From Caldilineaceae bacterium (GTDB taxonomy: Bacteria > Chloroflexota > Anaerolineae > Caldilineales > Caldilineaceae), in contig JAHDWH010000004.1 in assembly GCA_023384455.1 (NCBI GenBank), positions 834 through 64,833 of the forward strand: 64,000 nt of DNA. The letters run 5' to 3'. Positions within the stretch are counted from its first letter, which is position 1. Every line of letters begins with the position of its first letter. The notes beneath the pieces are model-generated. The model was not told the origin of the DNA and made no database searches. It saw nothing but the letters and a program-made list of their open reading frames with translations. The position numbers were made by a program, and so were the translations under genes. Below, piece by piece: positions 3,825 through 63,968 of the stretch.

Positions 3825-3826
3825 CT

Positions 3827-3948: not shown

Positions 3949-3966
3949 CGACGCCTCACCCGAAAG

Positions 3967-6365: not shown

Positions 6366-6610
6366 ACGATGCAAGACCAGCGCCGGTTGAGTAGTGTCCT
6401 GAGTTCATCGAAGGGTAGGAGCCATCTCAGAAAGCGGGGGCTTTTTCCCGCCGCGTGCGTAAACGATGAATGACCAGCGCCGGTTGAGTAGGCGGGTGTT
6501 TTTCCCCGCCGTATCGAAACCAAAGCGGGTTGACGAAGATTTCTCTCCTCACCCGTTCGCACTGGTTTCGATACGCCCTCCGCAGACTCCGGGCTACTCA
6601 ACCGGCGCTC
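6361..6610. repeat. Repeat family 3: 33-bp direct repeat (6361-6393 and 6459-6491) plus a roughly 137-bp palindromic pair of CAGCGCCGGTTGAGTAG..GTATCGAAACC units
   Basis: Forward unit at 6474-6535 and inverted unit at 6555-6610. The element starts at the feoB stop codon. Confidence 0.7.
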
Positions 6611-6691
6611 ACTGGCCTGGACTGTCCGCAACGCTTGTGACTTCGTCACCTTACGCAGCACGCAGTATGCAGCCAACCGAAGGAAACGTCA

Positions 6692-9176: not shown

Positions 9177-9222
9177 TGTGTTTCAATGTCAATGTAATCG
9201 ATTACATTGACATTGAAACACA
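9177..9222. promoter_or_regulatory. 46-bp perfect palindrome containing a LacI/GalR-type operator core TGTAATCGATTACA
   Basis: Checked base by base. The symmetry centre is between 9199 and 9200, and the first mismatch is at 9176/9223. It lies 33 nt upstream of the LacI-family gene. Confidence 0.6.
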
Positions 9223-21803: not shown

Positions 21804-21873
21804 AACGCAGATTTTCGCAGAAGGGCGCAGATTGCGCAGAAAAAACCTCTTTGCGTCTTTGCACCTTTGCGTT
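21804..21873 (+). terminator. Repeat-built hairpin (CGCAGA units against UUUGCG units) that pairs fully only as plus-strand RNA, through G.U wobbles
   Basis: Four CGCAGA(A/T) units at 21806-21840 and three CTTTGC(G/A) units at 21849-21873, directly after the stop at 21798. Confidence 0.45.
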
Positions 21874-22727: not shown

Positions 22728-22731
22728 GAGT

Positions 22732-22823
22732 GGGGACTGGGGACTGGGGATCGGGGATCGGGAACGGACGCCCGACTCATTTACAATTCATAATTCACTA
22801 TTCACTATTCACCATTCACTATT
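22732..22823. repeat. Two unrelated heptad arrays side by side: (GGGGACT/GGGGATC)x4-5 and (TTCACTA)x5
   Basis: Arrays at 22732-22766 and 22787-22823. They have no complementary arm and lie between the alpha and beta subunit genes. Confidence 0.8.
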
Positions 22824-22834
22824 TTCCCCTCCCT

Positions 22835-23383
22835 ATGCCCAGCCTAACCCTTCCCCTCACCGACACTGACCTTCTGCCTTTGCACGCGGGCGACAGCCTG
22901 CGCATCAGCGGCGTCATCTACACCGCCAGAGACGCGGCCCACAAGCGGCTGGTCGAACTGATCGAGCGGGGCGATCCCCTGCCCATCGACCTGGCGGGCC
23001 AAACCCTCTATTACGTGGGACCGGCCCCGGCCAAAGCGGGCCACGTCATCGGCCCGGCAGGACCGACCACCAGCGGGCGGATGGATTCGTATACGCTCCC
23101 CCTCCTGAGCCTGGGCGTGAAACTGCTGATCGGCAAAGGCTACCGCTCACCGGAGGTAAAGGCGGCGCTGGTGGCGCAGCGGGCCGTCTACGCCGCGGCC
23201 GTGGGCGGCGCGGCTGCACTGCTGGCCCGCCACATCCACAGCAGCCGGGTGGTGGCCTGGCCGGAACTGGGCACAGAGGCCATCCACGAATTGACCGTCG
23301 AGGGCTTTCCGGCTATTGTCATCAATGACTGTCACGGCGGGGACGCGTATGTGGATGGACGGGGAAAATGGATGATGGGATGA
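22835..23383 (+). CDS. Fe-S type hydro-lyase (fumarase/tartrate dehydratase), beta subunit
   Basis: GVIYTARDAAHKRL..GPTTSGRMD motif. The start was trimmed to the ATG at 22835, beyond the repeat arrays. Confidence 0.85.
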   Translation: MPSLTLPLTDTDLLPLHAGDSLRISGVIYTARDAAHKRLVELIERGDPLPIDLAGQTLYYVGPAPAKAGHVIGPAGPTTSGRMDSYTLPLLSLGVKLLIGKGYRSPEVKAALVAQRAVYAAAVGGAAALLARHIHSSRVVAWPELGTEAIHELTVEGFPAIVINDCHGGDAYVDGRGKWMMG

Positions 23384-23476
23384 TGGCACGTCATCATCTC
23401 ATTATCCCATCATCTTTTGCCTGCCCCACCTGCCACCTGTGACTTTTCACCGCCACCTTCCACAGGAGGTCATCCA

Positions 23477-25335: not shown

Positions 25336-25396
25336 AACGTAAAACGTAAAACGTGAGATCACCCGGCCTTTTTCACCCATCACATTTCACGTTTCC
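25336..25396. repeat. AAAACGT heptad array with a weak complementary arm (tttcacgttt)
   Basis: (AAACGT)(AAAACGT)(AAAACGT)GAGA at 25335-25358, with the partner at 25385-25394 (one mismatch). Confidence 0.45.
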
Positions 25397-26419: not shown

Positions 26420-28342
26420 ATGATATTCCGCAACCCAATGACAGCTTTCCCCCATCGCTTGCGCCGAATGTTCACCCGCTTCTCGGTTTGGGCCGAGAAG
26501 ATCGACCCCTACCTGGTGCTGATCTTTCTGGCTGCGCTCTTTGCGCTCTGGCCCCTGCTGGCCCCCGGCTATTTCTTCGGCGCGCACGATGGCCGCCACA
26601 GCGTCTTTTTCGTGTCGATGTTCGACGAGGCGATCCGGGATGGCGCGTTGTGGCCGCGCTGGGCTATGCACCACAACGCGGGCTATGGCTACCCAACTTT
26701 TATTGTCCAGGCACCCCTGGCCTTTTATGCGGCGGAGCTCTTCATTCTGCTGGGTGCGGGGATTACGACCGCGGTCAAGCTCACCTGGGCCGCTGGCTTT
26801 CTGCTGGGCGGCCTGGGAATGTATCTGTTGATTAGGGACTGGGGATTGGGGAACGGGGATCGGAGACTGCGATCTGCCCAGTCCCCAGTCCCCAGTCCCC
26901 AGTCCCTTCCCGCCCTGATTGCTGCCCTCCTATACATCTTCATCCCCTACCATCTGCTGGACATATACGTGCGGGCAGCCCTGGCCGAGACGACGCTGAT
27001 GGCCTGGTTTCCCTGGGTCATTCTGGCCTTCGACCGGCTGATTGTGCGGGGAGCCGATCCCGGTTGGCAACGACGCTTGCTCTGGGCCAGCCTCGCCTAT
27101 GGGGGGCTGTTGCTCACCCACGTCATCGCGCTCATCACCTTTACCCCTCTCCTTATCGCCTTCATTCTCTTCCGCCTGTGGACAGTCCGCCGTACTGCCC
27201 CGCCTCCCGTTTCCCGTTCTACGTCATCCGCCATTCGCAACTCGCAACTCGCCCCGCTCCTTCTATCTGCCAGCGCTGGTCTGGCCGCCCTGCTGCTGGC
27301 GGCCATTTTTCTGCTGCCGCTGCTGGCCGAAGGGCCCCTGCTGGACCAGAACGTCTACACCGGCAATACGTACAGCTACACCCGCCATTGGGTGCAGGTC
27401 AGCCAGTTCTTCGATCCCTTTTGGGGCTATGGCTTTTCGGATGATCCGGTGGGGGCCAACGACGGCATGGGTTTTCAGGTGGGGGTGCTGGCGCTGTTGC
27501 TGGGGATTGTGAGCGGACTGGGGCTGGGGCAGACGCGCAGGCCACGGGATCAGCGCTGGCAGATAGAGACCTTCCTGCTGCTGATTTCCGGCGGACTTCT
27601 GCTCTTTATTACACCCCTGGCCGAACCGATCTGGCGGCGGCTGCCGATGGTGGAGGTGATTCAGTTCCCCTGGCGCTTGCTGGCCCTGAGCAGTTTCACC
27701 CTGAGCGCGCTGGGCGGGCTGGCCGGGGCACGGCTGCTGGCAACCACAGACCCGGCGGCGACAGGCGGCGGCGTTGTGCTGGCGCTGTTGATTCTTTCCG
27801 CCAGCGGGAATTTCACCCGCCCGGAGTTCTTGCAACCGGTGGAGGCCTGGCGGGAAGATGGGCGGGCGGTCTATCAGTTCGAGCAGCAACACCCGGATAT
27901 GCTGGGCTACACCCGCTGGGTGGAACAGCCCTTCAGCCAATCCGCTATGACGCCCCAATACGCCGCGGACGATTTCGCCAATAGCCGATTGGAGCGCCTG
28001 GGGATTCTGACAGGGGAAGGCAGGGTTCTCAGCCACTACAGCCGGGGGCACTCCTTTGGCGGGGAAGCGGAGATGGGGTCCGCCGGGGTGGTGCAGCTAC
28101 GGGTCTACTTCTTTCCCGGCTGGCAGGTGCGGCTGGATGGGCAGCCGGTGGCCCATCGCCTTTCCCCACCGGACGGGCTGATCGAAATCGACGTACCGGC
28201 TGGCCGCCATCGGATCGATATGCGTATGGGCAGTACGCCTGTGCGGAGTGCCGGAATAGGGATTTCCGGCCTGGCACTGCTACTGTTGATTGTTCTTGAC
28301 GTGTCCAGTGGCTGGAAAAGAAAAGACGCGCAATTGGATTGA
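26420..28342 (+). CDS. Polytopic membrane protein, YfhO/COG5617-type glycosyltransferase-like
   Basis: GYFFGAHDGRHSVF..WP.W..HHNAGYGYPTF typical N-terminus and more than 10 TM segments. The upstream 240 aa of the track ORF overlap the dioxygenase gene and were trimmed. Confidence 0.7.
   Translation: MIFRNPMTAFPHRLRRMFTRFSVWAEKIDPYLVLIFLAALFALWPLLAPGYFFGAHDGRHSVFFVSMFDEAIRDGALWPRWAMHHNAGYGYPTFIVQAPLAFYAAELFILLGAGITTAVKLTWAAGFLLGGLGMYLLIRDWGLGNGDRRLRSAQSPVPSPQSLPALIAALLYIFIPYHLLDIYVRAALAETTLMAWFPWVILAFDRLIVRGADPGWQRRLLWASLAYGGLLLTHVIALITFTPLLIAFILFRLWTVRRTAPPPVSRSTSSAIRNSQLAPLLLSASAGLAALLLAAIFLLPLLAEGPLLDQNVYTGNTYSYTRHWVQVSQFFDPFWGYGFSDDPVGANDGMGFQVGVLALLLGIVSGLGLGQTRRPRDQRWQIETFLLLISGGLLLFITPLAEPIWRRLPMVEVIQFPWRLLALSSFTLSALGGLAGARLLATTDPAATGGGVVLALLILSASGNFTRPEFLQPVEAWREDGRAVYQFEQQHPDMLGYTRWVEQPFSQSAMTPQYAADDFANSRLERLGILTGEGRVLSHYSRGHSFGGEAEMGSAGVVQLRVYFFPGWQVRLDGQPVAHRLSPPDGLIEIDVPAGRHRIDMRMGSTPVRSAGIGISGLALLLLIVLDVSSGWKRKDAQLD
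26835..26907. repeat. GGGGAYT / AGTCCCC heptad hairpin lying in frame inside the membrane-protein CDS
   Basis: Left arm gggactggggattggggaacggggatcgg and right arm cccagtccccagtccccagtccccagtccc. It is translated as DWGLGNGDRRLRSAQSPVPSPQS. Confidence 0.8.
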
Positions 28343-43292: not shown

Positions 43293-43335
43293 GCAGTTCC
43301 CCATACGACTTCGTTGCGCCACGGGGAATGAAAAT
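43293..43335 (+). repeat. R45 dispersed repeat, copy 2
   Basis: GCAGTTCCCCATACGACTTCGTTGCGCCACGGGGAATGAAAAT, preceded by CTATTTTTCAGG, which can pair with TGAAAAT. Confidence 0.65.
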
Positions 43336-43339
43336 GTAG

Positions 43340-43414
43340 GTCGGACTGTTAGTCCGACGGGCCTGCACCGTCGCTGGTCGGACTAACAGTCCGACGTACA
43401 AATGGCTATTTTCA
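43340..43414 (+). promoter_or_regulatory. Twin stem-loops (loops TGTTA / TAACA) plus a GGCTATTTTCA box, second locus
   Basis: gtcggacTGTTAgtccgac (43340-43358), gtcggacTAACAgtccgac (43377-43395) and the box at 43404-43414. Confidence 0.45.
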
Positions 43415-43527: not shown

Positions 43528-44043
43528 GTGTCCCAGCAACCCGTTCGACCCGAACCCAAACCCACCCGCAACTTTTTTTGGCCCGGTTTTGCCATTGGCT
43601 TTGCCCTGCTGGCCCTGACCAGTTGCGGCAGTCTGGCTCTGATGGTTGGGCTGAATCCCGGCACACTGGCCGACCTTCAGTCCACTGGCCCGATGTGGAC
43701 ACCGCCGCCCCCGCCCACGCCCCTGCCCGCAGATATGACCGCGCCGGCCAGCCTTCCCCCCGCGGATGCCAGCCAGCCGGGCCGCTTGCAACCGGGCAGC
43801 CCGGCCCGCAACGTCGCCAGCAGCCGGGTCAACATCCGGCGCACGCCGGGCTATCTGGGCAAAGGCGACGACGACATTCTGGCCCAAATGGAGCCGGGCG
43901 CAAGCGTCGCCATTCTGGAATGGCCCCAGGCCGCGGACCAGTTGACCTGGTGGCACATCCGCGCCAACACACCTACCGGCCCAATCGAAGGCTGGGTAGC
44001 AGAATCCACCGCCAGCGGCGTCCAAATTCTGGCTGGGGAGTAG
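43528..44043 (+). CDS. Membrane-anchored bacterial SH3-domain protein
   Basis: One TM segment (FAIGFALLALTSCG), a Pro-rich linker and SH3b-like VNIRRTPGY..GASVAILE..WWHIR...GPIEGWV. GTG start. Confidence 0.6.
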   Translation: MSQQPVRPEPKPTRNFFWPGFAIGFALLALTSCGSLALMVGLNPGTLADLQSTGPMWTPPPPPTPLPADMTAPASLPPADASQPGRLQPGSPARNVASSRVNIRRTPGYLGKGDDDILAQMEPGASVAILEWPQAADQLTWWHIRANTPTGPIEGWVAESTASGVQILAGE

Positions 44044-44119
44044 GGATTGGGGACTGGAGATTGGGGACTGGGGATCGGACAGTTCCCAGTCCCCAGTCCC
44101 TAATCCCCAGTCCCCAGCC
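44031..44119 (+). terminator. GGGGAYT / AGTCCCC heptad hairpin starting in the last codons of the SH3 gene
   Basis: The G-rich arm ends near 44078, the loop is acagtt, and the C-rich arm is 44085-44119. Confidence 0.6.
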
Positions 44120-44133
44120 TCCAACCCCCACCT

Positions 44134-46405
<2,272 letters not shown>

Positions 46406-46416
<11 letters not shown>

Positions 46417-46487
46417 GGACTGGGGACTGGGGATCGGAGACCGGGAAGAAGCTTTGCCCCAGTCCCCAGTCCCCAATCCCCAATCCC
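46406..46487 (+). terminator. GGGGACT / AGTCCCC heptad hairpin overlapping the helicase stop codon
   Basis: G-rich arm 46406-46445 and C-rich arm 46457-46487. Confidence 0.6.
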
Positions 46488-46493
46488 TGCGCC

Positions 46494-47711
46494 ATGCGCA
46501 TCCTTCACCTCTACAAAGACTACTTCCCCGTCCTGGGGGGGATCGAAAATCATATCAAATGGCTGGCCGAGGGGATGGCGGGCCGGGGGCACGACGTCTC
46601 TGTGCTGGTGACGAACACTGGGCGCGGCGATGTGTCGGAGACTGTCGCGGGCGTGTCAGTCGTCAAAGTCAGCCGCCACTTTAACATTTCTTCCGCCCCG
46701 ATTGGGCTGGGGATGGCAGGCCAGTTGCGCCGGATGGCACGAGAGGCGGATGTCGTCCATCTCCACGCGCCCTACCCGCCGGGAGAACTGGCCCAATTGC
46801 TGGTGAGCGCGGGCCAGCGCACAGTCATCACCTGGCACAGCGATATTGTGAAACAGGCCGGACTGCTGCGCTTCTATGCGCCCTTTCTGCGCGCCGCGCT
46901 GAAAAGGGCGGACAAAATCCTCGTCGCCAGCCCGCCGTATGTGCAGAGTTCGGCTTTTTTGCGCCCCATTTATGAACGCACGCCAGGGAAAATAGCGGTT
47001 GTCCCCTTTGGGATCGACTTGTCGCGCTTTGCGAAAGAACCCCCACCCCGACCCTCCCCCGCCGCAGGGGAGGGAGAAGAACCCTCACCCCGACCCTCCC
47101 CCGCCGCAGGGGAGGGAGAAGCTTCGGTGGAAGCCCAAGCCGCGGCTCTGCGCGCCGGCTACGGGCCGGGACCGCTGGTGCTTTTTGTGGGGCGGATGCG
47201 CTATTACAAAGGGCTGCACGTACTGGTGCAGGCGATGGCGCAAGTGGAAAATGTCCGCTGTCTGGTCGTCGGCGTCGGCCCGCTGGAAGGGGAGATTCGG
47301 GCGCAGGTGGCCGGGCTGGGATTGGAGGAGCGGGTACTCTTTGCCGGGGAAGTGGACGACGCCGATCTGCCCGCCTATTACCGGGCCGCGGATATTTTCT
47401 GCCTGCCCTCCGTCCACCGCAGCGAAGCTCTGGGCATTGTCCTCCTGGAAGCGATGGCGAGCGGTCTGCCGCTGATCTCCACGGAACTGGGCACGGGCAC
47501 GTCCTGGGTAAACCAGCACGAAGTCACCGGGCTGGTAGTGCCGCCGGGAAACGCGGACGCCCTGGCCGAGGCCATCGAGCGGCTGGCCCGCAATGACGAC
47601 GAGCGGCGGGCTTTCGGTCAGGCCGCGCTACGCCGGGCCCGGGAAGAATTTGGGTTGGAGCAAATGTTGGATCAGACGGAGGCGGTCTATCGGGGGGTTT
47701 TGGATGGGTAG
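46494..47711 (+). CDS. GT4-family (GT-B) glycosyltransferase
   Basis: MRILHLYKDYFPVLGGIE start and the C-terminal E(x7)E region PSVHRSEALGIVLLEAMA. Confidence 0.85.
   Translation: MRILHLYKDYFPVLGGIENHIKWLAEGMAGRGHDVSVLVTNTGRGDVSETVAGVSVVKVSRHFNISSAPIGLGMAGQLRRMAREADVVHLHAPYPPGELAQLLVSAGQRTVITWHSDIVKQAGLLRFYAPFLRAALKRADKILVASPPYVQSSAFLRPIYERTPGKIAVVPFGIDLSRFAKEPPPRPSPAAGEGEEPSPRPSPAAGEGEASVEAQAAALRAGYGPGPLVLFVGRMRYYKGLHVLVQAMAQVENVRCLVVGVGPLEGEIRAQVAGLGLEERVLFAGEVDDADLPAYYRAADIFCLPSVHRSEALGIVLLEAMASGLPLISTELGTGTSWVNQHEVTGLVVPPGNADALAEAIERLARNDDERRAFGQAALRRAREEFGLEQMLDQTEAVYRGVLDG
47044..47121 (+). repeat. In-frame 42-bp tandem duplication (1.9 copies), each unit a CCCTCCCC..GGGGAGGG hairpin
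   Basis: Units at 47044-47085 and 47086-47121. It encodes PRPSPAAGEGEEPSPRPSPAAGEGE within the GT4 interdomain region. Confidence 0.8.
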
Positions 47712-47719
47712 AACGAGGA

Positions 47720-48139
47720 TCAGTGATGGAGCGGCAGGAGAATAGAAAACCCGGCTTGCTCGAAGTGATGATCGGAGGTAAACGCCTGGGCAATCTGATG
47801 ATCTGCCATACAGGCAAAGCTGATGCAATCTGTCAATCCCCAATCTTTGTCCGGGCGATTGCGGTATAGCACCCACCCTGCCGCGTGAAGCTCATCAGCA
47901 AAGGGGAGCGTTTCCAGAAGCGGCAACCGCCGAAGCCCATCAAGAAATGCGACCGTTCGACTGCGGACACCTGGCGCGGATAAGGCATCTGCGACTTCCA
48001 ATAACACAAACTCTGTGGTCAGAAGGCGCGTGTTCTGTGCGCGAAGGGTTTGCATGACTTGCATAGCCCGTTCGTGCAGATCGTCGCTATGGTTGAGCAG
48101 CGCGATCCAAGCGGCTGTGTCCACAAAGACGGTCGCCAT
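47720..48139 (-). CDS. vapC: PIN-domain toxin VapC
   Basis: VFVDTAAWIAL, TTEFVLLEV and GLTDCISF acidic motifs. Confidence 0.8.
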   Translation of the reverse strand: MATVFVDTAAWIALLNHSDDLHERAMQVMQTLRAQNTRLLTTEFVLLEVADALSAPGVRSRTVAFLDGLRRLPLLETLPFADELHAAGWVLYRNRPDKDWGLTDCISFACMADHQIAQAFTSDHHFEQAGFSILLPLHH

Positions 48140-48142
48140 TGC

Positions 48143-48388
48143 CTACCCGCGCTTCGGTTTGTGGTAGAGATAGTGGTCGTGCTGGTGGGCGAGATCGGCA
48201 ACCCCTGTCTCGACAGCATTTTGCTGCACCAATCCCATCAACACAGCCCAATCGTCTGTGTTCTGCTCAACACCCCAGTCCTCTGTTTCTTCGAGAAATG
48301 TGATGATGACAGCCTGCCCCTCTCGTCCCGGCACGGACTGATCGGGACGGATGATCCCTTTTTCAAAGCGTCCACGGATGGAAAGCAT
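48143..48388 (-). CDS. Antitoxin-like protein (AF2212/DUF104-like N-terminus) paired with VapC
   Basis: MLSIRGRFEKGIIRP..GQAVIITFLEE. It ends 3 nt before the vapC start. Confidence 0.6.
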   Translation of the reverse strand: MLSIRGRFEKGIIRPDQSVPGREGQAVIITFLEETEDWGVEQNTDDWAVLMGLVQQNAVETGVADLAHQHDHYLYHKPKRG

Positions 48389-48485
48389 TCGGGTGTACCT
48401 CCTGTGGTCAGTATACCACATCTATTACAGATGATCTGCGCCGCGCTCAGCCAGTGGCGTTGCAGAGCCATTTCGTGCTGGCGCG

Positions 48486-48585
48486 TAACTACTCAAGCCA
48501 GAAGGCCCATTCCGGGAATCGACCAGACCAATGCGGGAGTTCCGAACAGCTTCTGGTCGATTCCCGGAATGAAGTCAAGCACTTA
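48486..48585 (+). mobile_element. MITE family 2, copy E1 (TA-flanked, about 100 bp)
   Basis: TAactactcaagcc..cattccgggaatcgaccagac..ggtcgattcccggaatg..caagcactTA. Confidence 0.7.
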
Positions 48586-48600
48586 CCGTAACTGTATGTG

Positions 48601-48760
48601 ATGCACAGATGCTGTACCCGGCGCACAGATGCCGTATCACGCGTACAGCCTCTGTACGCCATGCGTAGACGCTGTGGATCACACACAGATGCCATACCTC
48701 GTACACAGCTTCTGTACGCGACGCACAGAAGCTGTACCCGCTCCACACAAGCTGTAGGTG
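48601..48760. repeat. Eight tandem 20-bp units (consensus RYGCACAGAYGCTGTACNCG), each a mini-palindrome ACAG-N4-CTGT
   Basis: The units fall exactly on 20-nt register from 48601. Confidence 0.8.
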
Positions 48761-48780
48761 GGTTCTTCCGACCCACGTCG

Positions 48781-48881
48781 TAACTACCCAGGCCAGGAGA
48801 CCCATTCGGGGAATCGACCAGACCAATGCGGGGAATTCCAGATAGCTCCCGGTCGATTCCCCGAATGAGGTTGAGCAGTTA
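48781..48881 (+). mobile_element. MITE family 2, copy E2
   Basis: Aligns end to end with E1. Its terminus gttgagcagtTA resembles the family 1 terminus. Confidence 0.7.
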
Positions 48882-48885
48882 CGCC

Positions 48886-49013
48886 GACGCACTGCCATTT
48901 CGCGGTGTTGCAGAGCCATTTCGCGCTGACGCATTGTCATTCGGGTAGTGACGCACTGTCGTTCGGGAGCGTTACACTGCCGTTCGGGAGTGATGCAGAG
49001 TCATTTCGTCGCC
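48886..49013. repeat. Six tandem 21-22-bp units (GAYGCACTGYCRTTCGGGAGY); one further unit at 48459-48479 lies on the other side of the MITE complex
   Basis: Units begin at 48886, 48907, 48928, 48950, 48971 and 48992. Confidence 0.75.
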
Positions 49014-49024
49014 GCGCGCTCCTC

Positions 49025-51433
49025 TTATCGCTGCACTGCGGGCAAGAAGAGTTGATTAATCTGCACCACCACATCCACGGGCGTTGTGCGCCAGGCCGTG
49101 CCGTCACCTAGTTCATCGGAACTGTTCCTTCCCCAGCATTTGGCCCCCCCCGTCGTAGTAAGAGCGCAGGTATGCGCATCGCCACTGGTGATGGCGACTG
49201 CACCGCTTCCTAACCCTACTACATCGACCGGGGTATTGGTGTCGGTTGTCGTGCCGTCACCTACCTGCCCGAAGTGGTTCCATCCCCAACATTTAACTCC
49301 GCCTGTCACGGTCAAGGTACAGGTGTGAGAGCCGTTATTGCCGCCGCCAGCAACGATGGCGGTCATACCGCTGCCCATCCCCACTACATCTACCGGAGTA
49401 CTCTTGTCCACCAGCATACCGTCGCCCAATTGACCATTGTCGTTTCGTCCCCAGCACTTGGTCCCACCCGCCGTGGTCAGAGCACAAGTGTGAGATCTAC
49501 CAGCAGCAATGGCAATTGCCCCACTACCTAACCCCATAACATCCACCGGGGTACTCTTATCCACCAGCGTGCTGTCGCCTAGTTGGCCGTAGTCGTTGCG
49601 TCCCCAACACTTGACGCCACCTCCTATAATCAGAACGCATGTGTGAGAACCACCAGCGGCAATAGCAGACACACCACTGTCCAACCCCACTACATCCACC
49701 GGCGTACTCTTATCCACCAGCGTTCCATCGCCCAGTTGGCCGTAGTCGTTGCGCCCCCAGCATTTACCTCCGCCTACCGTACTCAGAGCGCAAGTGTGGG
49801 AATCGCTAGCGGAGATGGCGGCTATATCGCTGCTCAATCCCACCACACCCACCGGAGTGGCCACAAAATATCCCGCCGTGTCATTACCCACTTGACCTGA
49901 TGTGTTGATTCCCCAGCACTTAACCCCGCCCGCCGTACTCAGGGCGCAGGTATGGGAGTTGCCACCGACGATGGCAGCCACACCGCTACCTAACCCTACC
50001 ACATCCACCGGGGTATTCTTATTGGCTCTCGTGCCATCACCCAGTTGACCAGCCCAGTTGGCTCCCCAACATTGGACCCCACCCATCATACTCAGGGCGC
50101 AAGTATGAGCACCGCCACCGGCGATGGCGGCCACGCCGCTTCCCAGCCCAGCCACATCCGTTGGGGTACTCTTGTTCCCTCCTGTGCCATCACCCAGTTG
50201 GCCGTATCTGTTGCTCCCCCAACACTTAACACCGCTCGTCATAGTCAGGGCACAGGTGTGAAATCCGCCAGCGATAATAATGGTCACGTCGTCCAACCCA
50301 TTTACATCTACTGGGGTGATCTTGTTCGCTGTTGTGCCATCTCCCAATTGGCCACCTCTATTGTTTCCCCAACACTTACTCCCACCCGTCGTACTCAGGG
50401 CGCAAGTATGGGAGTAACCAGCAGTAATGGCGGTTATACCACTTCCCAAACCTATCACGTCTACCGGGCTCGACTTTAGCGTTGTCGTACCGTCACCTAA
50501 TTGCCCGGAACTATTGTATCCCCAGCACTTGACTCCGCCCGCTGTACTCAGAGCGCAGGTGTGGGCACTTTCCCAATCTCCCTTACCAACAGCAATGGCG
50601 GCCACGCCGCTGCCTAACCCTACCACACCCACTGGGGTGGTTTCGGGTCCTCCCGTTGTGCCGATGCCCAGTTGGCCGGAACCATTGACCCCCCAACACT
50701 TGACCCCACCTGCTGTACTCAGGGCACAGGTGTATAAGTAGCCAGCAGCAATGGCAGTCACACTGCTATCCAGGTTCACTACGCTCACCGGACTACTCTT
50801 ATCTACAATCGTGCCGTCGCCCAATTCACCAGCGAGGTTGTGTCCCCAGCACTTAACCCCACCCGCCGTGCTTAGGGCACAACTATGGGAGCCACTAAAA
50901 CCGCCTCCAGTAGCGATGGCAGTCACACCACTGCCCAGCCCCACCACATCCACTGGGGTGAATTTGTCTATCGTTGTGTTGTCACCAAGCTGACCGTAGC
51001 CGTTGTTTCCCCAACACTTGACCCCGCCTGCTATAGTTAGGGCGCAGGTGTGAGCGTAGCCAGCGGCGATGGCGGCCACACCACTGCCCAACCCGACTAC
51101 ATCCACCGGGGTATTCTTGTCCGACGTGCTGCCGTCACCCAGTTGGCCGAAATCGTTTCTTCCCCAGCACTTGACCCCGCCCGCCGTTGTCAGCGCACAG
51201 GTGTGGTTGCCACCAGCTACCACCTGCACAATGCCGTCCAGAGGAACTAACGCCTGGGGCTGGGATTGGGCATTGTCAGGCAGAGCAACTTCACTGGCCT
51301 GGAGGGACGACAGCGACCAGACCAGCCAAAGAGCAAGTGCAGTCAACAGCCCCAACAGGGCTATGGCTGACCAAACGATTTGCGACTTCGAGCCCGTTGT
51401 ACGTTGAGCGGAAGTGAGTGTCACAGAGCGCAT
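49025..51433 (-). CDS. Membrane-anchored RCC1-repeat (beta-propeller) protein with 14 repeats
   Basis: 14 occurrences of HTCAL...GG.KCWG.N..GQLGDG and an N-terminal TM segment IALLGLLTALALWLVW. Confidence 0.85.
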   Translation of the reverse strand: MRSVTLTSAQRTTGSKSQIVWSAIALLGLLTALALWLVWSLSSLQASEVALPDNAQSQPQALVPLDGIVQVVAGGNHTCALTTAGGVKCWGRNDFGQLGDGSTSDKNTPVDVVGLGSGVAAIAAGYAHTCALTIAGGVKCWGNNGYGQLGDNTTIDKFTPVDVVGLGSGVTAIATGGGFSGSHSCALSTAGGVKCWGHNLAGELGDGTIVDKSSPVSVVNLDSSVTAIAAGYLYTCALSTAGGVKCWGVNGSGQLGIGTTGGPETTPVGVVGLGSGVAAIAVGKGDWESAHTCALSTAGGVKCWGYNSSGQLGDGTTTLKSSPVDVIGLGSGITAITAGYSHTCALSTTGGSKCWGNNRGGQLGDGTTANKITPVDVNGLDDVTIIIAGGFHTCALTMTSGVKCWGSNRYGQLGDGTGGNKSTPTDVAGLGSGVAAIAGGGAHTCALSMMGGVQCWGANWAGQLGDGTRANKNTPVDVVGLGSGVAAIVGGNSHTCALSTAGGVKCWGINTSGQVGNDTAGYFVATPVGVVGLSSDIAAISASDSHTCALSTVGGGKCWGRNDYGQLGDGTLVDKSTPVDVVGLDSGVSAIAAGGSHTCVLIIGGGVKCWGRNDYGQLGDSTLVDKSTPVDVMGLGSGAIAIAAGRSHTCALTTAGGTKCWGRNDNGQLGDGMLVDKSTPVDVVGMGSGMTAIVAGGGNNGSHTCTLTVTGGVKCWGWNHFGQVGDGTTTDTNTPVDVVGLGSGAVAITSGDAHTCALTTTGGAKCWGRNSSDELGDGTAWRTTPVDVVVQINQLFLPAVQR

Positions 51434-51574
51434 AGAGTTCTCCCCTTCAAGAATAGGATTGGTACCGCTATGGAGGGCTTATGGCAGCGATGGAGAGAGG
51501 ATGGAAGCCCGAGGAAATTACATTCTCATTGTAAATCCGCCCGTCAGGTGTGTCAAGTGCAGCGCGTGCAGAGG

Positions 51575-51654
51575 ATGGGCAGGATCGCTGATTCCGGGAA
51601 TCGCCCAGACGTTCTTGGCTTTGCAGGCTGGATGTGGGCGATTCAAACCGTTAC
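51575..51654. mobile_element. Degenerate MITE family 2 remnant
   Basis: gattccgggaatcgcccagac .. gggcgattcaaaccgttac resembles the E1/E2 core and terminus. Confidence 0.4.
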
Positions 51655-51663
51655 CCAACCCCC

Positions 51664-51803
51664 AATGCAGACCTACTCTCCGAAGAGGATCAGCGCGCCA
51701 TCCACGAAACCCCTATTTGCTGGCGATTCCTGGTATGCGCGAGTCCATTCTGGAAGGAATGCAGACCCCCATCGACGAATGCAGCGATGAGGTGGTGTGG
51801 TGA
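51664..51803 (+). pseudogene. yefM: YefM/Phd antitoxin remnant: N-terminal half missing and a 1-nt frameshift at 51712-51714
   Basis: Frame 1 reads NADLLSEEDQRAIHET and frame 0 continues YLLAIPGMRESILEGMQTPIDECSDEVVW, then a stop. Confidence 0.6.
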
Positions 51804-52063
51804 GCTGGCGCGTGGTCTTTGCCCAACAGGCCCAAAAGGATGCAAAAAAACTCTCCGCTTCCGGTCTCCAAGCCAAAGCCGAGGAGTTGCTGGAACTTCT
51901 CCGCCAGAATCCCTATCAGAACCCGCCACCCTATGAAAAGCTGGTTGGCGATCTGGCCGGGGCCTGTTCCCGCCGTATCAACATTCAGCATCGCCTCGTC
52001 TATCAAATTCTGGAAGAAGAAGAGACTGTGAAAGTGCTCCGTCTGTGGAGCCATTACGAATGA
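51797..52063 (+). CDS. yoeB: YoeB/Txe-family toxin, apparently intact
   Basis: YEKLVG, SRRINIQHRLVY and a C-terminal WSHYE. The GTG start overlaps the antitoxin stop. Confidence 0.8.
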   Translation: MVSWRVVFAQQAQKDAKKLSASGLQAKAEELLELLRQNPYQNPPPYEKLVGDLAGACSRRINIQHRLVYQILEEEETVKVLRLWSHYE

Positions 52064-52259
52064 TCCGTAGACCGCAGACAGCGGACCGCAGACCGCTTCT
52101 TGCACCTTATCAGGTGCGGTCTGCCGTCAGTGGTCGGCGGTCTACAGGCAGTGCGGGCACGCCCATTTCCCCTCCCTCGAATGCAGGCGCGTACCTTCAC
52201 GCCTTTTGGGCACTTTCCCCTGGGGCGTTGAAAAGTTGCACCAAACAATTTCACTAACG

Positions 52260-52538
52260 CTAACGAGCAAAATCGTGCGTCTCCTGCATCACTCTTTCGC
52301 GCAGCCAGGTCTGGACAAGCATCTGATAAGGAATTCCGCGGCGTTCGGCGGCGTCCACGATAGCAGCGAAAAGATCGGTGCGCAGGCGCACGTCCAATGG
52401 CTTTGTTGTGAAATGGGTTCGCTTCACAACAAACGTCTCGTCAGCATCTTCCATTTCATCCATATACTCTGCCGTGTCGTGGGTGTCAACCCAGTCGGCC
52501 AGTTCTTCTTCCGTCCGAAATTCTGGTAGTTTGGGCAT
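52260..52538 (-). CDS. brnA: BrnA-type (CopG/RHH) antitoxin
   Basis: EEELADWVDTHD..VRLRTDLFAAIVDAAERRGIPYQMLVQTWLRERV. Confidence 0.75.
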   Translation of the reverse strand: MPKLPEFRTEEELADWVDTHDTAEYMDEMEDADETFVVKRTHFTTKPLDVRLRTDLFAAIVDAAERRGIPYQMLVQTWLRERVMQETHDFAR

Positions 52539-52563
52539 ACTGATCTTCTATTCTCCGATACAA

Positions 52564-52833
52564 CTATCGCTGTCGATACCTGCGTTTCTCAATAGGCGTC
52601 ATATCTCGGGCTGTGACTACACGTATGCGATTACCAGCCTTCGGCGCAAAGACGACTACCAGAAAACGTCCCTCATCCGTTTGTCCGTAAGCCAGATACT
52701 TTCCTTCGCCGCCCCGCTTCAACCGGGGTCTATTGGTAATTACTTCTTCCGCTTCGTAGGGTTCAACGCCGTGATTTGCAATGTGCTCAACGTTATCGTC
52801 GTCCCACCAAAATTCATCTTCCGGCATAGACAC
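52564..52833 (-). CDS. brnT: BrnT (DUF497) toxin
   Basis: FWWDDDNVEHIANHGVEPYEAEEV..RFLVVVF....IRVVTARDMTPIEKRRY. Confidence 0.8.
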   Translation of the reverse strand: MSMPEDEFWWDDDNVEHIANHGVEPYEAEEVITNRPRLKRGGEGKYLAYGQTDEGRFLVVVFAPKAGNRIRVVTARDMTPIEKRRYRQR

Positions 52834-52951
52834 CTCACCCTGTGCATTCGCATATCTGAAACAGATTATACCATAGGAATCTTTGCCCTGTGCTATAATG
52901 GCTTCTAAACCTCACAACGCGCGTACCTTCACTTCTTTTGGACACGACCCT

Positions 52952-56566: not shown

Positions 56567-56647
56567 TGATAAGGTGACAAGAAGAGGGTGACATAGCAGG
56601 CGCCTTGTCTCCTTGTCTCCTTGTCTCCTTGTCTCCTTATCACCCTC
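56567..56647. repeat. CCTTGTCT octamer array (x4-5) with an imperfect complementary arm upstream
   Basis: Array at 56603-42. gagggtga (56584-91) pairs with tcaccctc (56640-47). Confidence 0.6.
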
Positions 56648-59359: not shown

Positions 59360-60397
59360 ATGAATGAAAAACAGGAAGCACCTACCCATCTACTTGGCGA
59401 GAGCAGCAGAGAGCGCGGGCAGACCCAGACGATTGACGGTTCTCGGGGCCGCCGCGGTCTGCTTCTCCTCTTTGCCCGTCTGCTGCGCCCCGCCCTGACC
59501 ACAGCCCTGGCCCTGCCGATTCTCTGGGGGCTGGCCCTGGCCCACTGGCACGGCGCACCCCTCAACGGCTGGTCCATCGCCCTGCTGCTCACCGCCACCG
59601 GCGCCTTTTGCATCGGTCTCAGTCTGGCCGGTCACTACGCCGACTTTCAGCGCTGGCTGGCCCAGGAGCGCTCGACACCCGGTGGCGAACAGCTTTTGCC
59701 CGAAGAAAGACAGATCTCCTCTGGGCAGGATGTCTTTCAATTGCTCTACAGCCGCCAGGTGCGTCCGGGCGCCGTGCGCAGTCTGGTGCTGCTCTCTCTC
59801 TGGATCACCCTGCTGGCCTCCCTCTGGCTTGGCGAGCTGGTGGGCTGGCCTCTGTTCTTTTTCGGTCTGCTCAGCGTCCTGTTGGCTGTGCTCTCCCTGC
59901 TGCCCGGTGTGCGCTACTCTCGCTGGCTGTGGATTGTGGGTGATCTGGCCGTGCTGGCCGCGGTGGGCTTTCTGCCTGTGCTCAGCGCCTATTACGCCCA
60001 CCGGGAAGTGATCGACCGCTGGGTGCTGCTGGCAGCCGTCGCGCCCAGCCTCTTGGCCTGGCTCACCTGGACCAGTTACAATCTGCTCAGTTGGCGACGG
60101 GACTGGCGAATCCGCCGGGGTACGGCAGTGGCGATCTTTGGCCCGGAGCGGGCCCTGGACGCTGGCGCGGTCATAGGCGTCGCCGCCTTTACCTCCGTGC
60201 TACTGCTGATGGCCCTGGGCGGCCTGCCCCTCTCTTCCCTGCTGGTGCTGGGCAGCTTGCCCATCTTTCTGCGTGCCTTCACCCACACCAACCAACAACC
60301 TCTGACCCCAACGACCGCCGCCTACGTCATCGACCGCTCCACCCAGGCCGCCATACTGGCCGGGCTGCTCTGGATGCTGGCGTTGTGGAATGGGTAG
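59360..60397 (+). CDS. UbiA-prenyltransferase-like polytopic membrane protein with degenerate Asp-rich motifs
   Basis: GHYADFQR stands in place of NxxxDxxxD, and SWRRDWRIRRGTAVAIFG resembles the second UbiA motif. Confidence 0.45.
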   Translation: MNEKQEAPTHLLGESSRERGQTQTIDGSRGRRGLLLLFARLLRPALTTALALPILWGLALAHWHGAPLNGWSIALLLTATGAFCIGLSLAGHYADFQRWLAQERSTPGGEQLLPEERQISSGQDVFQLLYSRQVRPGAVRSLVLLSLWITLLASLWLGELVGWPLFFFGLLSVLLAVLSLLPGVRYSRWLWIVGDLAVLAAVGFLPVLSAYYAHREVIDRWVLLAAVAPSLLAWLTWTSYNLLSWRRDWRIRRGTAVAIFGPERALDAGAVIGVAAFTSVLLLMALGGLPLSSLLVLGSLPIFLRAFTHTNQQPLTPTTAAYVIDRSTQAAILAGLLWMLALWNG

Positions 60398-60446
60398 GGG
60401 GCTGGGGGCTGGGGATTGGGGACTGGGGATTGGGGATTGGGGAATC
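60397..60446 (+). repeat. Seven GGGG(G/A)(C/T/A)T heptads directly after a stop codon, with no complementary arm
   Basis: ggggctgggggctggggattggggactggggattggggattggggaat. Confidence 0.8.
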
Positions 60447-60491: not shown

Positions 60492-60559
60492 TTGTATACA
60501 CGGATGAAAAAGAACACGGATTTTTATTAATCCGTGTTCTTTTTCATCCGTGTATACAA
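60492..60559. terminator. Perfect 31-bp inverted repeat with a 6-nt loop (ACACGGAT-type units)
   Basis: The arm at 60492-60522 is the exact reverse complement of 60529-60559. Confidence 0.7.
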
Positions 60560-61122: not shown

Positions 61123-61177
61123 AATGTAAGACGTAAGGCATAAAACGTAAGGTGATGTAGCCACAAAGTGCGGGCCA

Positions 61178-61240
61178 AAACGTGAAGAGGTGAAACGTGA
61201 GATGTCGTCACATACTCTCACGGTTCACCTCTTCACGTTT
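61178..61240. terminator. 25-bp-arm hairpin built from ACGTGAA-type units, lying between convergent genes
   Basis: aaacgtgaagaggtgaaacgtgaga (61178-61202) pairs with 61216-61240 (one mismatch). ACGTAAG units lie upstream at 61130-61160. Confidence 0.65.
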
Positions 61241-61274
61241 CTGCACGCAAATTGTGGCTGCGCGACCTTATGTT

Positions 61275-62054
61275 TTACCCCATCTGCGAAAAATCCGGCT
61301 TGCGTTTCTCAAAGAACGCCTGCAACGCCTCTGCCGCCTCTGGCCCCTGCAACTGTGCCCCAAAGACCGCCAACTCTGCGTCCATTGTTTTTGCGATGAG
61401 GTCGGCCTGGGCCGCCTTCATCAGCCGCTTTGTCTGGCCCAGGGCCGTGGGGGCTTTGGCAGCCAGGATCAGCGCTTTGGAGCGGGCCACCCCTTCCACC
61501 TCCTCCGGCTCGAAAACCCCGTTGACAAAACCCATCGCCAACGCCTGCTCTGCGCCAAAAGGCTCGGCCAGCATCAGCAACTCAGCGGCCCGACGCTGGC
61601 CCAGCAGTTGGGGCAGGAGCAGGCTGGAGCCGGCCTCGGGTACCAGCCCCAAATCCACAAAGGGCAGGTGAAAACGGGCGTTTGTGCCCGCATAGGCCAG
61701 ATCGCAGTGGAGGAGCAGCGTCGTGCCGATGCCGATGGCAACCCCGCAGACCGCGGCCACCAGGGGTTTGGCAAAGGAGCGCAAAGTGGGCAGAAATTGC
61801 ACCACCGGGCTGTCCGGGCTGGTGGGCGGGTTGTTGAGGAAGTCCATCAGATCGTTGCCCGCCGTAAAACAGGCCGGGCCGCCGGTGATGAGCACCGCCC
61901 GCACTTCGTCGTCCCCGCTGGCCCGGACAAGCGCGTCGGTGATCCCCGCGTACATCGCCAGGGTCAGCGCGTTCTTCTTGGCGGGGCGGTTGATGCGGAT
62001 GGTGAGAATGCGGTCGGAGAGATCGGTGAGGATAAGAGAATCTGAATCGGCCAT
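61275..62054 (-). CDS. Enoyl-CoA hydratase/isomerase (crotonase) family protein
   Basis: ILTIRINRPAKKNAL and FTAGNDL. A GGAGG RBS precedes the ATG at 62054. Confidence 0.85.
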   Translation of the reverse strand: MADSDSLILTDLSDRILTIRINRPAKKNALTLAMYAGITDALVRASGDDEVRAVLITGGPACFTAGNDLMDFLNNPPTSPDSPVVQFLPTLRSFAKPLVAAVCGVAIGIGTTLLLHCDLAYAGTNARFHLPFVDLGLVPEAGSSLLLPQLLGQRRAAELLMLAEPFGAEQALAMGFVNGVFEPEEVEGVARSKALILAAKAPTALGQTKRLMKAAQADLIAKTMDAELAVFGAQLQGPEAAEALQAFFEKRKPDFSQMG

Positions 62055-62077: not shown

Positions 62078-62136
62078 CGTGAAACGTGAAACGTGAGTTC
62101 AATCGGATCTTCTCACGTTTCACGCTTCCCGTTTCT
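62078..62136. terminator. ACGTGAA heptad hairpin after the ABC exporter gene and upstream of the crotonase gene
   Basis: tgaaacgtgag (62087-62097) pairs with ctcacgtttca (62112-62122). Slipped alternatives are possible. Confidence 0.55.
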
Positions 62137-62150
62137 GTGGCAAAAAAGTG

Positions 62151-63968
62151 TTACGAATAGCGGGCAAAAATATCCCGATAGGCCTGGGAACTCTCCAGCA
62201 ACTCCTCGTGGCTGCCCACCGCGGCCACCCGTCCTTTGCGCAGGACCACAATTTTGTCAGCCCAGCGAATCTGGGATAAGCGGTGGGTGATGAGAATCGT
62301 CGTGCGCCCCCGGGTGGCGGCCTCGATGGCCCGCTGAATCTGATCCTCGGTGGCGCTGTCGATGGCGCTGGTGGAGTCGTCCAGAATCAGCACAGCCGGG
62401 TTGGTGAGAAAGGCCCGGGCCAGGGCGATGCGCTGGCGCTGGCCCCCGGAGAGCATCACCCCCCGCTCGCCCACGACTGTCTTGTAGCCCTGGGGAAAGG
62501 TGCTGATGAATTCGTGGGCCTGGGCCGCTTTTGCCGCATCTTCAATCTCTGTCTGGCTGGCCTCTGGGCGGCCAAAGGCGATATTCTCCCCAATCGTGCG
62601 GCTAAAGAGGAAGATGTCCTGCTCGATAATCGAAATCTGCCTACGCAGCGTGGCGATATTCCACCCCCGCACGTCCACCCCGTCCACCGTCACCCGGCCC
62701 TGGGAAACGTCGTAGATGCGGTTGATCAGCTTGGCAACCGTCGTCTTGCCCGCACCGGTCTGCCCCACCAGAGCCAACGTCTGACCCGCCTCAATCGTAA
62801 AGGAGACGTTCTCCAGGGCCGGGCGGCTGACGGATGCGCCATTTTTGCCATTGGCACGCCCTCCCAGCTTGCCGTTGGCGTCCAGAGTCGATTCGTAGCC
62901 AAAGGTGACATTTTCAAAGCGAATCTCGCCCCGCATATCTTCGCTATAGCCGCCCTCGTTGCGGTCGAGTTCGGTCTCCGAGCGCAACAGTTCCAGAATG
63001 CGCCGGGCGCTGGATACGCCGGAAGACACCTGGGAATAGGCGAAGATGGAGACGAAAACCGGAAAGCTAAAGAGCGAAATCAGCCCTGTATAGGCCACCA
63101 CATCGCCCAGAGGCAGAATCTCGGCCCGGAAAAGCACCAGCGCGTGCCAAATTCCTGTGGCCTGGGCAATGCCCAGCAACAGCAGGGGCAGATAGCGGGC
63201 CTCCACCCGGCCCTGGCCCACAAAGGCTTCCCGCACCCGGCGGGCATTCTTCTCAAAGCGCTCGATCTCCACCGTTTCCTGGGCCGCGGCCTTGACGGTT
63301 TCGATGCCCTCGATGGCCGCGGTCAGCCCTGCGTTCATCTGCCCAAAGCTGGCCCGCACCTGGGCCGTGGCCGGGGAGAGGTCCCGCAGGTATTGGGCCA
63401 GGGCAAACGTATAGAGAATTGTAAAGATCAGCGGCGTCCAGATCAGTTGGGGGTGGATGCTGGGCGCAACCAGAATGGGCACGATCAGAAAGTTGGCCGA
63501 GCCGACCACCAGATTGAGGCCGGGGGCTACCAGCAGGGCCAGTTCGCGCACGTCGTTGGTGGCCCGGGCCATCATCTCGCCCGTGGGGTAGCCGTCGTGA
63601 AAGCGCATGGACTTGCCCAGCAGGGAGGCGTAGAGCTCCTGGCGGCTGTCCCGTTCCAGCCGCTGGCCCTGGACTTCGCTGGCCGCGTTGCGGGCCAGTT
63701 GGAGCAGGCTGCGCACCAGCTGGGTGCCCACCATCAGCAGGGAGACCCACAGGATCGTCTGCAAGTTCACCACATCGCCCCGGGCCGCGTTGAATGCCTG
63801 GCCGGAATAGATGGGGATGGCTGTGGCCAGGGCCGCGTTGCCAAAGGCGCCCAGAATGGAGATGATCACCAGCCACATATTGTGTTGCAGATGGGAACCG
63901 AGCCAGCGCACAGGCCCTTTTTTGTTGGTACGGACGGGGTTGGCGACGACAAATTCAGATTTGAGCAT
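62151..63968 (-). CDS. ABC exporter, fused permease-ATPase (MsbA / multidrug type)
   Basis: Six TM segments in the N-terminal half, Walker [10 protein letters not shown], signature [13 protein letters not shown] and Walker [12 protein letters not shown]. Confidence 0.9.

Follow-up and report, generated by a model that had tools for sequence, protein, structure and literature searches.

What builds long hairpins out of tandem heptamers at the ends of bacterial genes, and what keeps them there? The question is raised by an element at positions 44031-44130 of a 64-kb stretch of one Caldilineaceae genome (contig JAHDWH010000004.1; the whole stretch is called the window below), in which six copies of GGGGAYT, a 9-nt loop and five to six copies of AGTCCCC stand between a UvrD-like helicase gene and the gene upstream of it. 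GGGGAYT is the dominant unit of such elements in the window and equals the heptamer of Nostoc PCC 7120; by rotation and change of strand it becomes CCCCAGT, which we take, as an initial annotation of this DNA had rightly done, to be the STRR1 heptamer of the cyanobacterial short tandemly repeated repetitive (STRR) DNA. The function and origin of the STRR heptamers have been a question since about 1990, and their main use so far has been as fingerprinting markers. Judged from its sequence, the host of the window is a Caldilineaceae bacterium (Chloroflexota) near Litorilinea and no cyanobacterium: the G+C content is ~60%, and the helicase (44134-46416) shares 89-93% amino acid identity with proteins of Caldilineaceae and Litorilinea aerophila metagenome-assembled genomes (MAGs), the closest genomes. 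The STRR architecture, even with the same units, is now seen in a second, unrelated filamentous phylum, and there it is unusually regular: the elements lie right against stop codons, their polarity is fixed, the unit turns over at fixed sites, and protein loops hold conserved in-frame copies, features that provide a comparative system for separating DNA-level generation from RNA-level function. Our preferred reading, which we regard as about evenly poised between right and wrong, is that these are DNA-level repeat palindromes of the STRR class that are kept at gene 3' ends and form a genome-wide repeat family of Caldilineaceae.

Results

The elements are real and statistically strong. Hairpins of 16 or more paired bases number 18 in the window, where 30 dinucleotide shuffles gave 0.37 on average, and those of 20 or more number 11, where the shuffles gave 0; period-7 tandem arrays, identified with Tandem Repeats Finder (TRF) at a threshold of at least 2.5 copies, number 16 against 0.4, and the periodicity score of the arms is reached by 0.6% of random 25-mers from the window. 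In about 13 of the window hairpins an array of a 7-9-nt unit is paired with one of its complement. Stems of 17-40 bp make the hairpins very stable, and the window contains about 16 element sites in total. The initial annotation had listed 11 sites and described them as one family with a common architecture and a variable unit; TRF, arm and fold data bear this description out, and the repeats and a predicted stem are present at all 11, with uneven quality. Its list lacked the hairpins at 23370-23415 and 52065-52145, the one-armed arrays at 22731-22823 and 60397-60443, and an in-frame array at 27235-27252. An assembly artefact can be ruled out because hairpins stand at these sites in relatives that were assembled independently, too. 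An Rfam gathering search of the whole window returned 0 matches.

At the focal site, TRF reports (TGGGGAT)x6.0 and then (CAGTCCC)x5.4, and units of the GGGGAYT type run from 44034. The two arms (44031-44070 and 44080-44119) are 40 nt each, 85% complementary and 9 nt apart, with a predicted RNA fold of -75 to -80 kcal/mol; the 5' arm contains the TAG stop of the upstream gene (44041-44043), and the helicase start at 44134 lies 3 nt beyond the 3' arm. The helicase is followed by a second hairpin of this kind (46408-46487; GGGGACT x3.7, 24-nt loop, CCCCART x4.4), in which its own TAG stop (46414-46416) is the unit variant ACTAGGG and past which, after 6 nt, a glycosyltransferase starts at 46494. 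GGGGAYT is used at five window sites (22731, 26830, 44031, 46408 and 60397). Its arrays are stop-free in all six frames, and where a stop codon stands at the start of an array, it belongs to a unit variant with A in place of G (TGGGG to TAGGG).

At most window sites the element takes up nearly the whole gap between two co-directional genes. The earlier description of the arrays as intergenic fails at 26835-26907, which is in frame within a 640-codon gene (26420-28342). The further claim that the elements are placed exactly at stop codons holds as a strong tendency and not as a rule, the distance from stop to element being -14 to +38 nt overall and 94 nt for 60492. At six sites the distance from the element to the next start is only 1-14 nt. 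Enrichment at gene ends was confirmed in 130 kb from six relatives with independent gene calls: 33 of 48 arrays fell in intergenic DNA, which makes up 9.9% of the sequence (p~1e-22), and in all 16 co-directional gaps the element was nearer to the upstream stop than to the downstream start (p=3e-5). These gap tests thus find many dispersed copies, mainly in non-coding DNA, the dispersal that is expected of STRR sequences. Convergent gaps had the highest array density (6.8 per kb), followed by co-directional gaps (2.5) and divergent gaps (1.15), of which 4 of 17 held arrays. A tie of the elements to gene 3' ends is supported by these data.

Polarity is fixed in the dominant family, where a G-array, a loop and a C-array followed one another in 11 hairpins and the C-first order occurred in none; the element being a palindrome, the same order is read from either strand. 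Counted by unit family, a G-rich 5' arm prevails 16:6 (p=0.05). A purine-first polarity is a trend alone and was rejected as a general rule, with exceptions at 3827 and at position 16887 of locus L026.

Attachment to stops in 16 of 16 gaps, the highest density in convergent gaps, the very stable stems and the retention of a hairpin at the same sites in orthologs are all what would be expected of stem-loops acting in the sense transcript, either as U-tract-independent terminators or attenuators or as RNase III or 3'-end stabilizing sites by which operon stoichiometry is set; for the hupS-hupL hairpins, a role in transcript stability or translational coupling has been proposed (PMC2670836). We nonetheless consider such an RNA function quite unlikely as the main explanation, given the six elements that end 1-14 nt ahead of the next start, the arrays in divergent gaps, the hairpin of the same type kept inside an intact gene, and the one-armed, non-complementary arrays on the + strand at 22731-22823 (GGGGAYY x~5 and then an unrelated ATTCACT x4.4), which fill the space from the fumarase alpha stop at 22727 to the fumarase beta start at 22835. 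The terminator function suggested by the initial annotation likewise found no support. At each of the 14 sites tested, T occurs 1-5 times in the 12 nt past the 3' arm, so that no heptad site has a terminator T-tract, and a terminator consensus scan, which made 18 hits overall against 15.5 expected, flagged no heptad hairpin. An efficient terminator ahead of 44134 or 46494, or inside the membrane-protein gene at 26420-28342, would silence conserved genes, and no promoter-like match was seen in the gaps ahead of 44134 and 46494, the two of the six short gaps that fall within the scanned region. With the missing T-tract, the short gap to the next start and the hairpin kept inside an intact gene, the elements are poor candidates for intrinsic terminators, and efficient termination by them appears unlikely from their sequence.

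Selection on RNA pairing might also be expected to leave wobble pairs in the sense strand. Over 29 oriented sites, 62 G·U pairs were counted in the sense folds and 87 in the antisense folds, and stability favored the antisense fold at 16 sites and the sense fold at 9; there is thus no sense-strand G·U excess over the 29 sites, although at 16:9 the comparison has low power. Of the 18 window hairpins that have 16 or more paired bases, seven are perfect palindromes, even where the sequence is irregular. Because many stems are perfect across irregular sequence, and because the mismatches show no sense-strand G·U preference, the symmetry looks like the product of copying at the DNA level and not of wobble-tolerant selection on pairing.

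The G-rich arms had also been proposed to be G-quadruplex (G4) motifs, so that hairpin and G4 folds would compete. The motif itself is present: GGGGAYT arms match G3+N1-7, and at least four G3+ runs with loops of at most 7 nt occur at 22732-22762, 26835-26858, 46406-46432 and 60392-60442 and, on the opposite strand, at 44085-44115. What did not stand was an even competition. When folded in silico with ViennaRNA (RNA parameters, G4 allowed), the three two-armed sites are predicted to form the hairpin (-53 to -75 kcal/mol), with only -11 to -20 kcal/mol for a G4 of a single arm, and a G4 is predicted solely at the one-armed sites 60397 and 22731 (-48 and -38 kcal/mol). The strongest G4 candidate of the window is 60397-60443 (+ strand; GGGGRYT x6.7; -48 versus -10 kcal/mol), an array that begins at the TAG stop (60395-60397) of a UbiA-like gene and has no complementary arm. 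On this modelling, the one-armed G-rich arrays alone are credible G4 formers. That G4 switches are what the elements are for is extremely unlikely, even though Nostoc GGGGA(C/T)T oligonucleotides form G4 in vitro (PMC4692102): most of the other unit families have no G-runs and no G4 motif, and the shared architecture would therefore go unexplained.

Arrays also occur in frame inside protein genes. The hairpin at 26830-26907 (GGGGAYT/AGTCCCC, -56 to -64 kcal/mol) lies in a PTPS-related membrane-protein gene (26420-28342), whose gene call, P0001, reads through it, and 26835-26907 encodes the loop RDWGLGNGDRRLRSAQSPVPSPQS. The same variable loop is found in homologs, with peptides that are translated heptad arrays (DWGLGTG...SPIPNPQSP, YWLLGIG...NTQYPIPITQY, IRNSQFAIRNSQ). 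At the DNA level the window and seven relatives carry arrays in this loop, and four of the eight form a hairpin, at -47 to -79 kcal/mol (L023 -54, L024 -47 and L026 -79 kcal/mol among the relatives); three more distant relatives, with 51-58% amino acid identity, have one-armed arrays of CCATTCG, CGCAATC and CCTTGCC at the same loop. A second loop of the protein (codons ~247-272) also gathers arrays, at 27235 in the window, 10782 in L023 and 10743 in L034; the window copy (27235-27252, + strand) is a one-armed TCGCAAC x2.6 that is read as AIRNSQLAP.

A different coding insert was noticed in the GT4 glycosyltransferase gene that follows the helicase (46494-47711). An in-frame 42-nt unit, repeated x2.1 at 47035-47121 in the interdomain linker, contains a small C-first hairpin, CCCTCCCCCGCCGCAGGGGAGGG, and encodes EPPPRPSPAAGEGE twice; the window has two copies, L002 and L003 have one each, and L001 and L004 have none. 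By sequence comparison, then, a palindromic insert in coding sequence is polymorphic for presence and absence.

Comparison of unit repertoires among relatives showed that a limited set of units recurs and that the unit changes at orthologous sites. Both gaps flanking the helicase hold hairpins in all five Litorilinea-like genomes (the window and loci L001-L004), with GGGGAYT in the window and L001, TATTGGG on both sides in L002, CAGTRAK on both sides in L004, and GGGGAKC and the 8-mer GAGATTRR in L003. After the gene for a 1226-aa protein the unit is CCTTGTCT in the window and CACCTGC in L004, and L001 and L013 have no array. When the five orthologous upstream hairpins were aligned, to see if the loops might be ancestral and the arms replaced, they shared just short strings (TAGCCGC, GGATAG). 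Of 79 arrays of period 7-8, 23 are built from GGGGAYT, which was found in the window, L001, L002, L003, L023 and L026; GACCGCA, CACCTGC, GAGATTRR, AATCAGT and ACACGGATT also recur across loci, and loops are site-specific, differing among non-orthologous copies. The 9-mer ACACGGATT occurs at window position 60492, at L026 21243-21391 and in the hairpin of a cyanobacterial (Pseudanabaenaceae) locus, L018. A helicase-based metagenome scan gave five loci, among which the sole close relative, L031, is without the upstream synteny, and a pattern scan of viral contigs for GGGGAYT x3.7 gave 12 stretches among 2.9 million contigs.

Two observations were made outside the close relatives. The hairpin of L018, which comes from a MAG, spans 16750-16870; its units are 9-mers that follow the pattern NNNNNGATT, among them ACACGGATT, AGACAGATT and ACGCTGATT, together with the complementary 9-mers. 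In L010, from a distant Chloroflexia MAG, one-armed arrays that run in opposite orientations stand on the two sides of the helicase ortholog, with units of the ACTGATA/ACTGGYW type right ahead of the start codon (~9970-10000) and AATCAGT x4 over the stop (~12430-12470); a single mismatch separates these units from the TAACTGA repeats known in Beggiatoaceae and cyanobacteria.

A limited unit set common to genomes and phyla raises the possibility that each unit is recognized by a DNA- or RNA-binding protein specific for it, with the hairpin secondary and the common units reflecting the specificity of the factor. GATT/AATC and CAAT/ATTG are enriched ~4-fold among 49 distinct units, one-armed arrays exist, binding of S1, Csp or CsrA has been proposed for TAACTGA repeats (MacGregor 2015, PMC4679880), and a Nostoc recF/recO study speculated on protein binding to heptamer repeats. 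We judge this explanation very unlikely: at least 49 distinct units in ~250 kb are too many for one factor, the units change at orthologous sites, and there is so far no candidate protein.

Identical units at many unrelated sites, together with the replacement of one unit family by another at orthologous sites, could also be the work of mobile or copied elements. Here, unit families of the repetitive extragenic palindromic (REP) type, including REP doublets forming hairpins (REPINs), or of the miniature inverted-repeat transposable element (MITE) type would be spread by a trans-acting enzyme, such as a REP-associated tyrosine transposase (RAYT/Y1 transposase) or a conversion system, and would inherit their polarity and common unit set from master copies. 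The fixed polarity fits this explanation, as do the L002 hairpins on either side of the helicase, which share arms and loop start (TTTCGTAGYCRCG), the glycosyltransferase insert present in some relatives and absent in others, and the occurrence in the window of a separate REP-like element with a copy in L024. The evidence on the other side leaves the idea unlikely in our view. Loops differ between non-orthologous copies; no conserved termini or target-site duplications were seen by inspection at the three GGGGAYT hairpins (44031, 46408 and 26830); and no transposase or reverse transcriptase was found by Pfam scans among ~30 window ORFs (open reading frames), with ~64 kb of the genome covered. 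Change at the strain level also proceeds by single units and not by whole elements. L024 and L025 are 99.7% identical, with 36 single nucleotide polymorphisms in 13.9 kb, and their five longest indels (9-36 nt) comprise two repeat-copy changes in a coding repeat, two single-unit changes at end-of-gene arrays (+GAGTAGGAA and -TTTCCGCTT) and one of 11 nt at a hairpin base.

Among specific classes of mobile sequence, the MITE was rejected on the variable loops and the missing flanking direct repeats at those three hairpins, and the integron attC site because no RYYYAAC...GTTRRRY core sites were seen on inspection of the hairpin sequences. The neighbours are not cassette-like either, the helicase-glycosyltransferase pair being syntenic in L001-L004 and housekeeping genes, for example those of the fumarase subunits, standing at other sites. 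The heptad hairpins have no common GTAG/CGTC end tag, GTAG occurring just where a stop codon makes one. The REP-like element referred to above, a GTAG-tagged double hairpin at 43335-43400 (TGTAGGTCGGACTGTTAGTCCGAC, an 18-nt spacer and the complement), is separate from the heptad hairpins and looks like an element of the REP/REPIN type; a near-identical arm occurs at a non-orthologous place in L024 (7887-7943).

The remaining window elements vary in unit and in quality. Two are perfect palindromes in which the 'unit' occurs just 2-3 times at a spacing of 9-15 nt: one of 31 bp at 60492-60559, with a 6-nt loop and ACACGGAT(T) twice, and one of 23 bp at 1893-1951, with CACGAAT(TG) repeats of period 9, which lies 26 nt after the stop of a FemAB-like gene and 66 nt ahead of a DtxR-like gene. 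The hairpin at 3811-3957 has arms of CGTATTG x2.6 and TACGCAA x3.7 around a structured loop of 79-86 nt and overlaps the stop (3822-3824) of a DtxR/FeoA-like gene. Around the fumarase genes, a weak hairpin at 21804-21873 (CGCAGA(nn) and TCTTTGCG arrays, -24 to -30 kcal/mol) starts 5 nt past a stop and ends 14 nt ahead of the alpha start, and an 8-mer hairpin at 23370-23415 (GGATGATG and TCATCATC) has the TGA stop of the beta gene (23381-23383) within one of its units. The array at 25336-25396 is weak-stemmed, with AAACGTR x2.9 and a short complementary arm, TTTCACGTTT, and starts 38 nt past a stop; this site and 21804-21873 are weak (-16 to -30 kcal/mol).

At 52065-52145, GACCGCA and GGTCTGC arms pair over 25 of 30 bp and start 1 nt past the stop of a ParE-toxin gene; the GACCGCA unit is also present in L024, x12.6. 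The hairpin at 56567-56647 joins a degenerate 5' arm of the GACAAGGA type to a perfect 3' arm of CCTTGTCT x4.5, starting 3 nt past the stop of the gene for the 1226-aa TPR/Wzy protein and ending 13 nt before the start of a GT4 gene. A convergent gap is spanned by the hairpin at 61141-61277 (62-nt arms, 82% complementary, AAACGTG units), which begins 18 nt past the stop of a + strand gene and reaches the stop codon of a - strand enoyl-CoA hydratase gene, and the hairpin at 62078-62131 (CGTGAAA x2.7) lies 19 nt downstream of the stop (62151-62153) of a - strand ABC-transporter gene. Gene calling is affected by several of these elements: longest-ORF starts fall inside hairpins at 3793, 22724, 25353 and 60550, with the true starts downstream, and in L026 a spurious 51-codon ORF was called across a hairpin (19947-20102).

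Other inverted repeats and an insertion were seen in the window. Between feoB and a copper P-type ATPase gene stands a long structured inverted repeat (6472-6618; 52-nt arms, -84 kcal/mol) with a 75.6% identical copy on the opposite strand of L002 (19029-19188) and no Rfam match; either a repeat element or a non-coding RNA under conservation is conceivable. Past the end of the ATPase gene, 9177-9222 is a perfect, loopless 46-nt palindrome (TGTGTTTCAATGTCAATGTAATC and its complement) with CAATGT twice per arm. A perfect palindrome, CATTCSGGGAATCGACC..., occurs in two copies ~300 nt apart (48508-48571 and 48803-48867) between PIN-domain and RCC1-repeat genes. These genes belong to a ~5-kb block (~47720-52880) that is missing from the syntenic regions of L001 and L004 and is probably an inserted island; it encodes the PIN-domain protein, a ParE/YoeB-like toxin and an 802-aa RCC1-repeat protein with 153-nt DNA repeats (49356-51205).

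Discussion

We favor the reading that the elements are STRR-class palindromes generated at the DNA level and retained at gene 3' ends. The arrays gain and lose whole units; they would grow by slipped-strand mispairing, and the second arm would be made and re-perfected by intrastrand template switching or inverted duplication. Template switching is a known mechanism of quasipalindrome correction. Where an element survives may then be filtered by selection: a stem-loop right after a stop codon would spare promoters and ribosome-binding sites, and once transcribed it might be harmless or mildly useful, as a protection of the 3' end or as an intercistronic stem. The stem may loop out the inserted DNA and thereby leave the stop and the next start adjacent at its base, an arrangement compatible with termination-reinitiation coupling. 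In permissive protein loops, the survivors would be those copies that are in frame and free of stop codons.

Several points weigh against this reading. Slippage and template switching do not explain why the same units occur at unrelated sites and in unrelated genomes with site-specific loops, nor do they account for a polarity that is fixed; the model lacks some process of dispersal, conversion or sequence-specific selection. That the elements hold so closely to the upstream stop is a property of the sense strand and could reflect a real RNA function rather than tolerance, and the comparison that found no G·U excess has little power. The statistics come from ~64 kb of one Caldilineaceae genome plus ~200 kb of relatives, and the gene map of the window was built from ORFs, codon usage and Pfam matches and not from an annotation. 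What disperses the units is the main uncertainty.

One answer, which we offer as distinctly improbable, is that a horizontally shared, sequence-specific machinery writes or homogenizes polar inverted arrays next to stops, for example a templated 3'-end repeat-adding, nicking or conversion enzyme. If true, it would explain why the same few units, many of them containing GATT plus 3-5 nt, occur at unrelated sites across Chloroflexota, Cyanobacteria, Xanthomonas and Beggiatoaceae, why loops are site-specific while arms are overwritten, and why polarity is fixed; STRR sequences would in that case be traces left by a DNA-repair or repeat-seeding system not yet described, and not passive microsatellites. 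On a practical level, the elements mislead gene callers, can break assemblies and add low-complexity inserts to proteins.

Compared with known systems, our preferred reading of the elements as a DNA-level STRR family finds its closest counterpart in cyanobacteria. There, too, tandem 7-nt units with GGGGAYT as the dominant unit are dispersed and mostly intergenic, can form hairpins between co-transcribed genes and can occur inside genes; the differences lie in the host, which is a heterocystous or filamentous cyanobacterium there and a 60% G+C Caldilineaceae here, and in the strong attachment to stop codons here. Vioque reportedly described, in 1997, an STRR in an RNase P RNA gene. In Nostoc PCC 7120, GGGGA(C/T)T forms 89 arrays, 68% of them intergenic, with few inverted pairs (PMC4692102), and the gap between cyanobacterial hupS and hupL contains hairpins of STRR heptamers (PMC2670836). 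Judged by their sequence, the elements fit the structural definition of STRR sequences and depart from it only in the original taxonomic restriction. We found no report of heptamer hairpins in Chloroflexota in the literature searched.

The GGGAATC repeats of Xanthomonas (Rehm et al. 2015) are another close counterpart: 70-75 convergent inverted pairs lie mostly between aligned ORFs and are enriched within 50 bp past stop codons, some overlapping the stops, and the repeats form G4 in vitro; for these repeats, a contest of hairpin and G4 folds is already under discussion (PMC4692102). They resemble our elements in being G-rich heptamers in G-first convergent pairs, mostly between co-directional ORFs, with a repeat number that varies by species. 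Unlike them, where a single dominant unit is conserved across two species, the elements described here comprise dozens of 6-9-nt families, change units at orthologous sites and include conserved in-frame coding copies. For the TAACTGA repeats of Beggiatoaceae, Cyanobacteria and Bacteroidetes, a patchy distribution has suggested horizontal spread (MacGregor 2015, PMC4679880). These are likewise intergenic heptamer arrays, patchy across phyla, and the units of L004 (AATCAGT/ACTGATT) and L010 (ACTGATA, TAACTGG) are one mismatch from TAACTGA; however, nearly all TAACTGA arrays are direct and just upstream of starts, with one inverted case, whereas here inverted pairs abut stops.

REP sequences, bacterial interspersed mosaic elements (BIMEs) and REPINs share with our elements the position of palindromes at gene ends, species-specific families, transcription with the upstream gene, for which mRNA stabilization has been proposed, and orthologous gaps that may hold different families, but they have no tandem heptads and are marked by a GTAG/CGTC tag, absent from the heptad hairpins, and by linkage to RAYT genes. 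Intrinsic terminators are likewise G+C-rich stem-loops downstream of stops, but have a T-tract, whereas the stems here are much longer (17-40 bp), several stand within 1-14 nt of the next start, and one lies inside a gene. The architecture itself is thus not new, inverted G-rich heptamer arrays at stops being known in Xanthomonas and STRR hairpins in cyanobacteria; what is new here is the turnover of units at conserved sites, the sharing of units across phyla, the fixed polarity, the strain-level indels of single units and the conserved coding copies.

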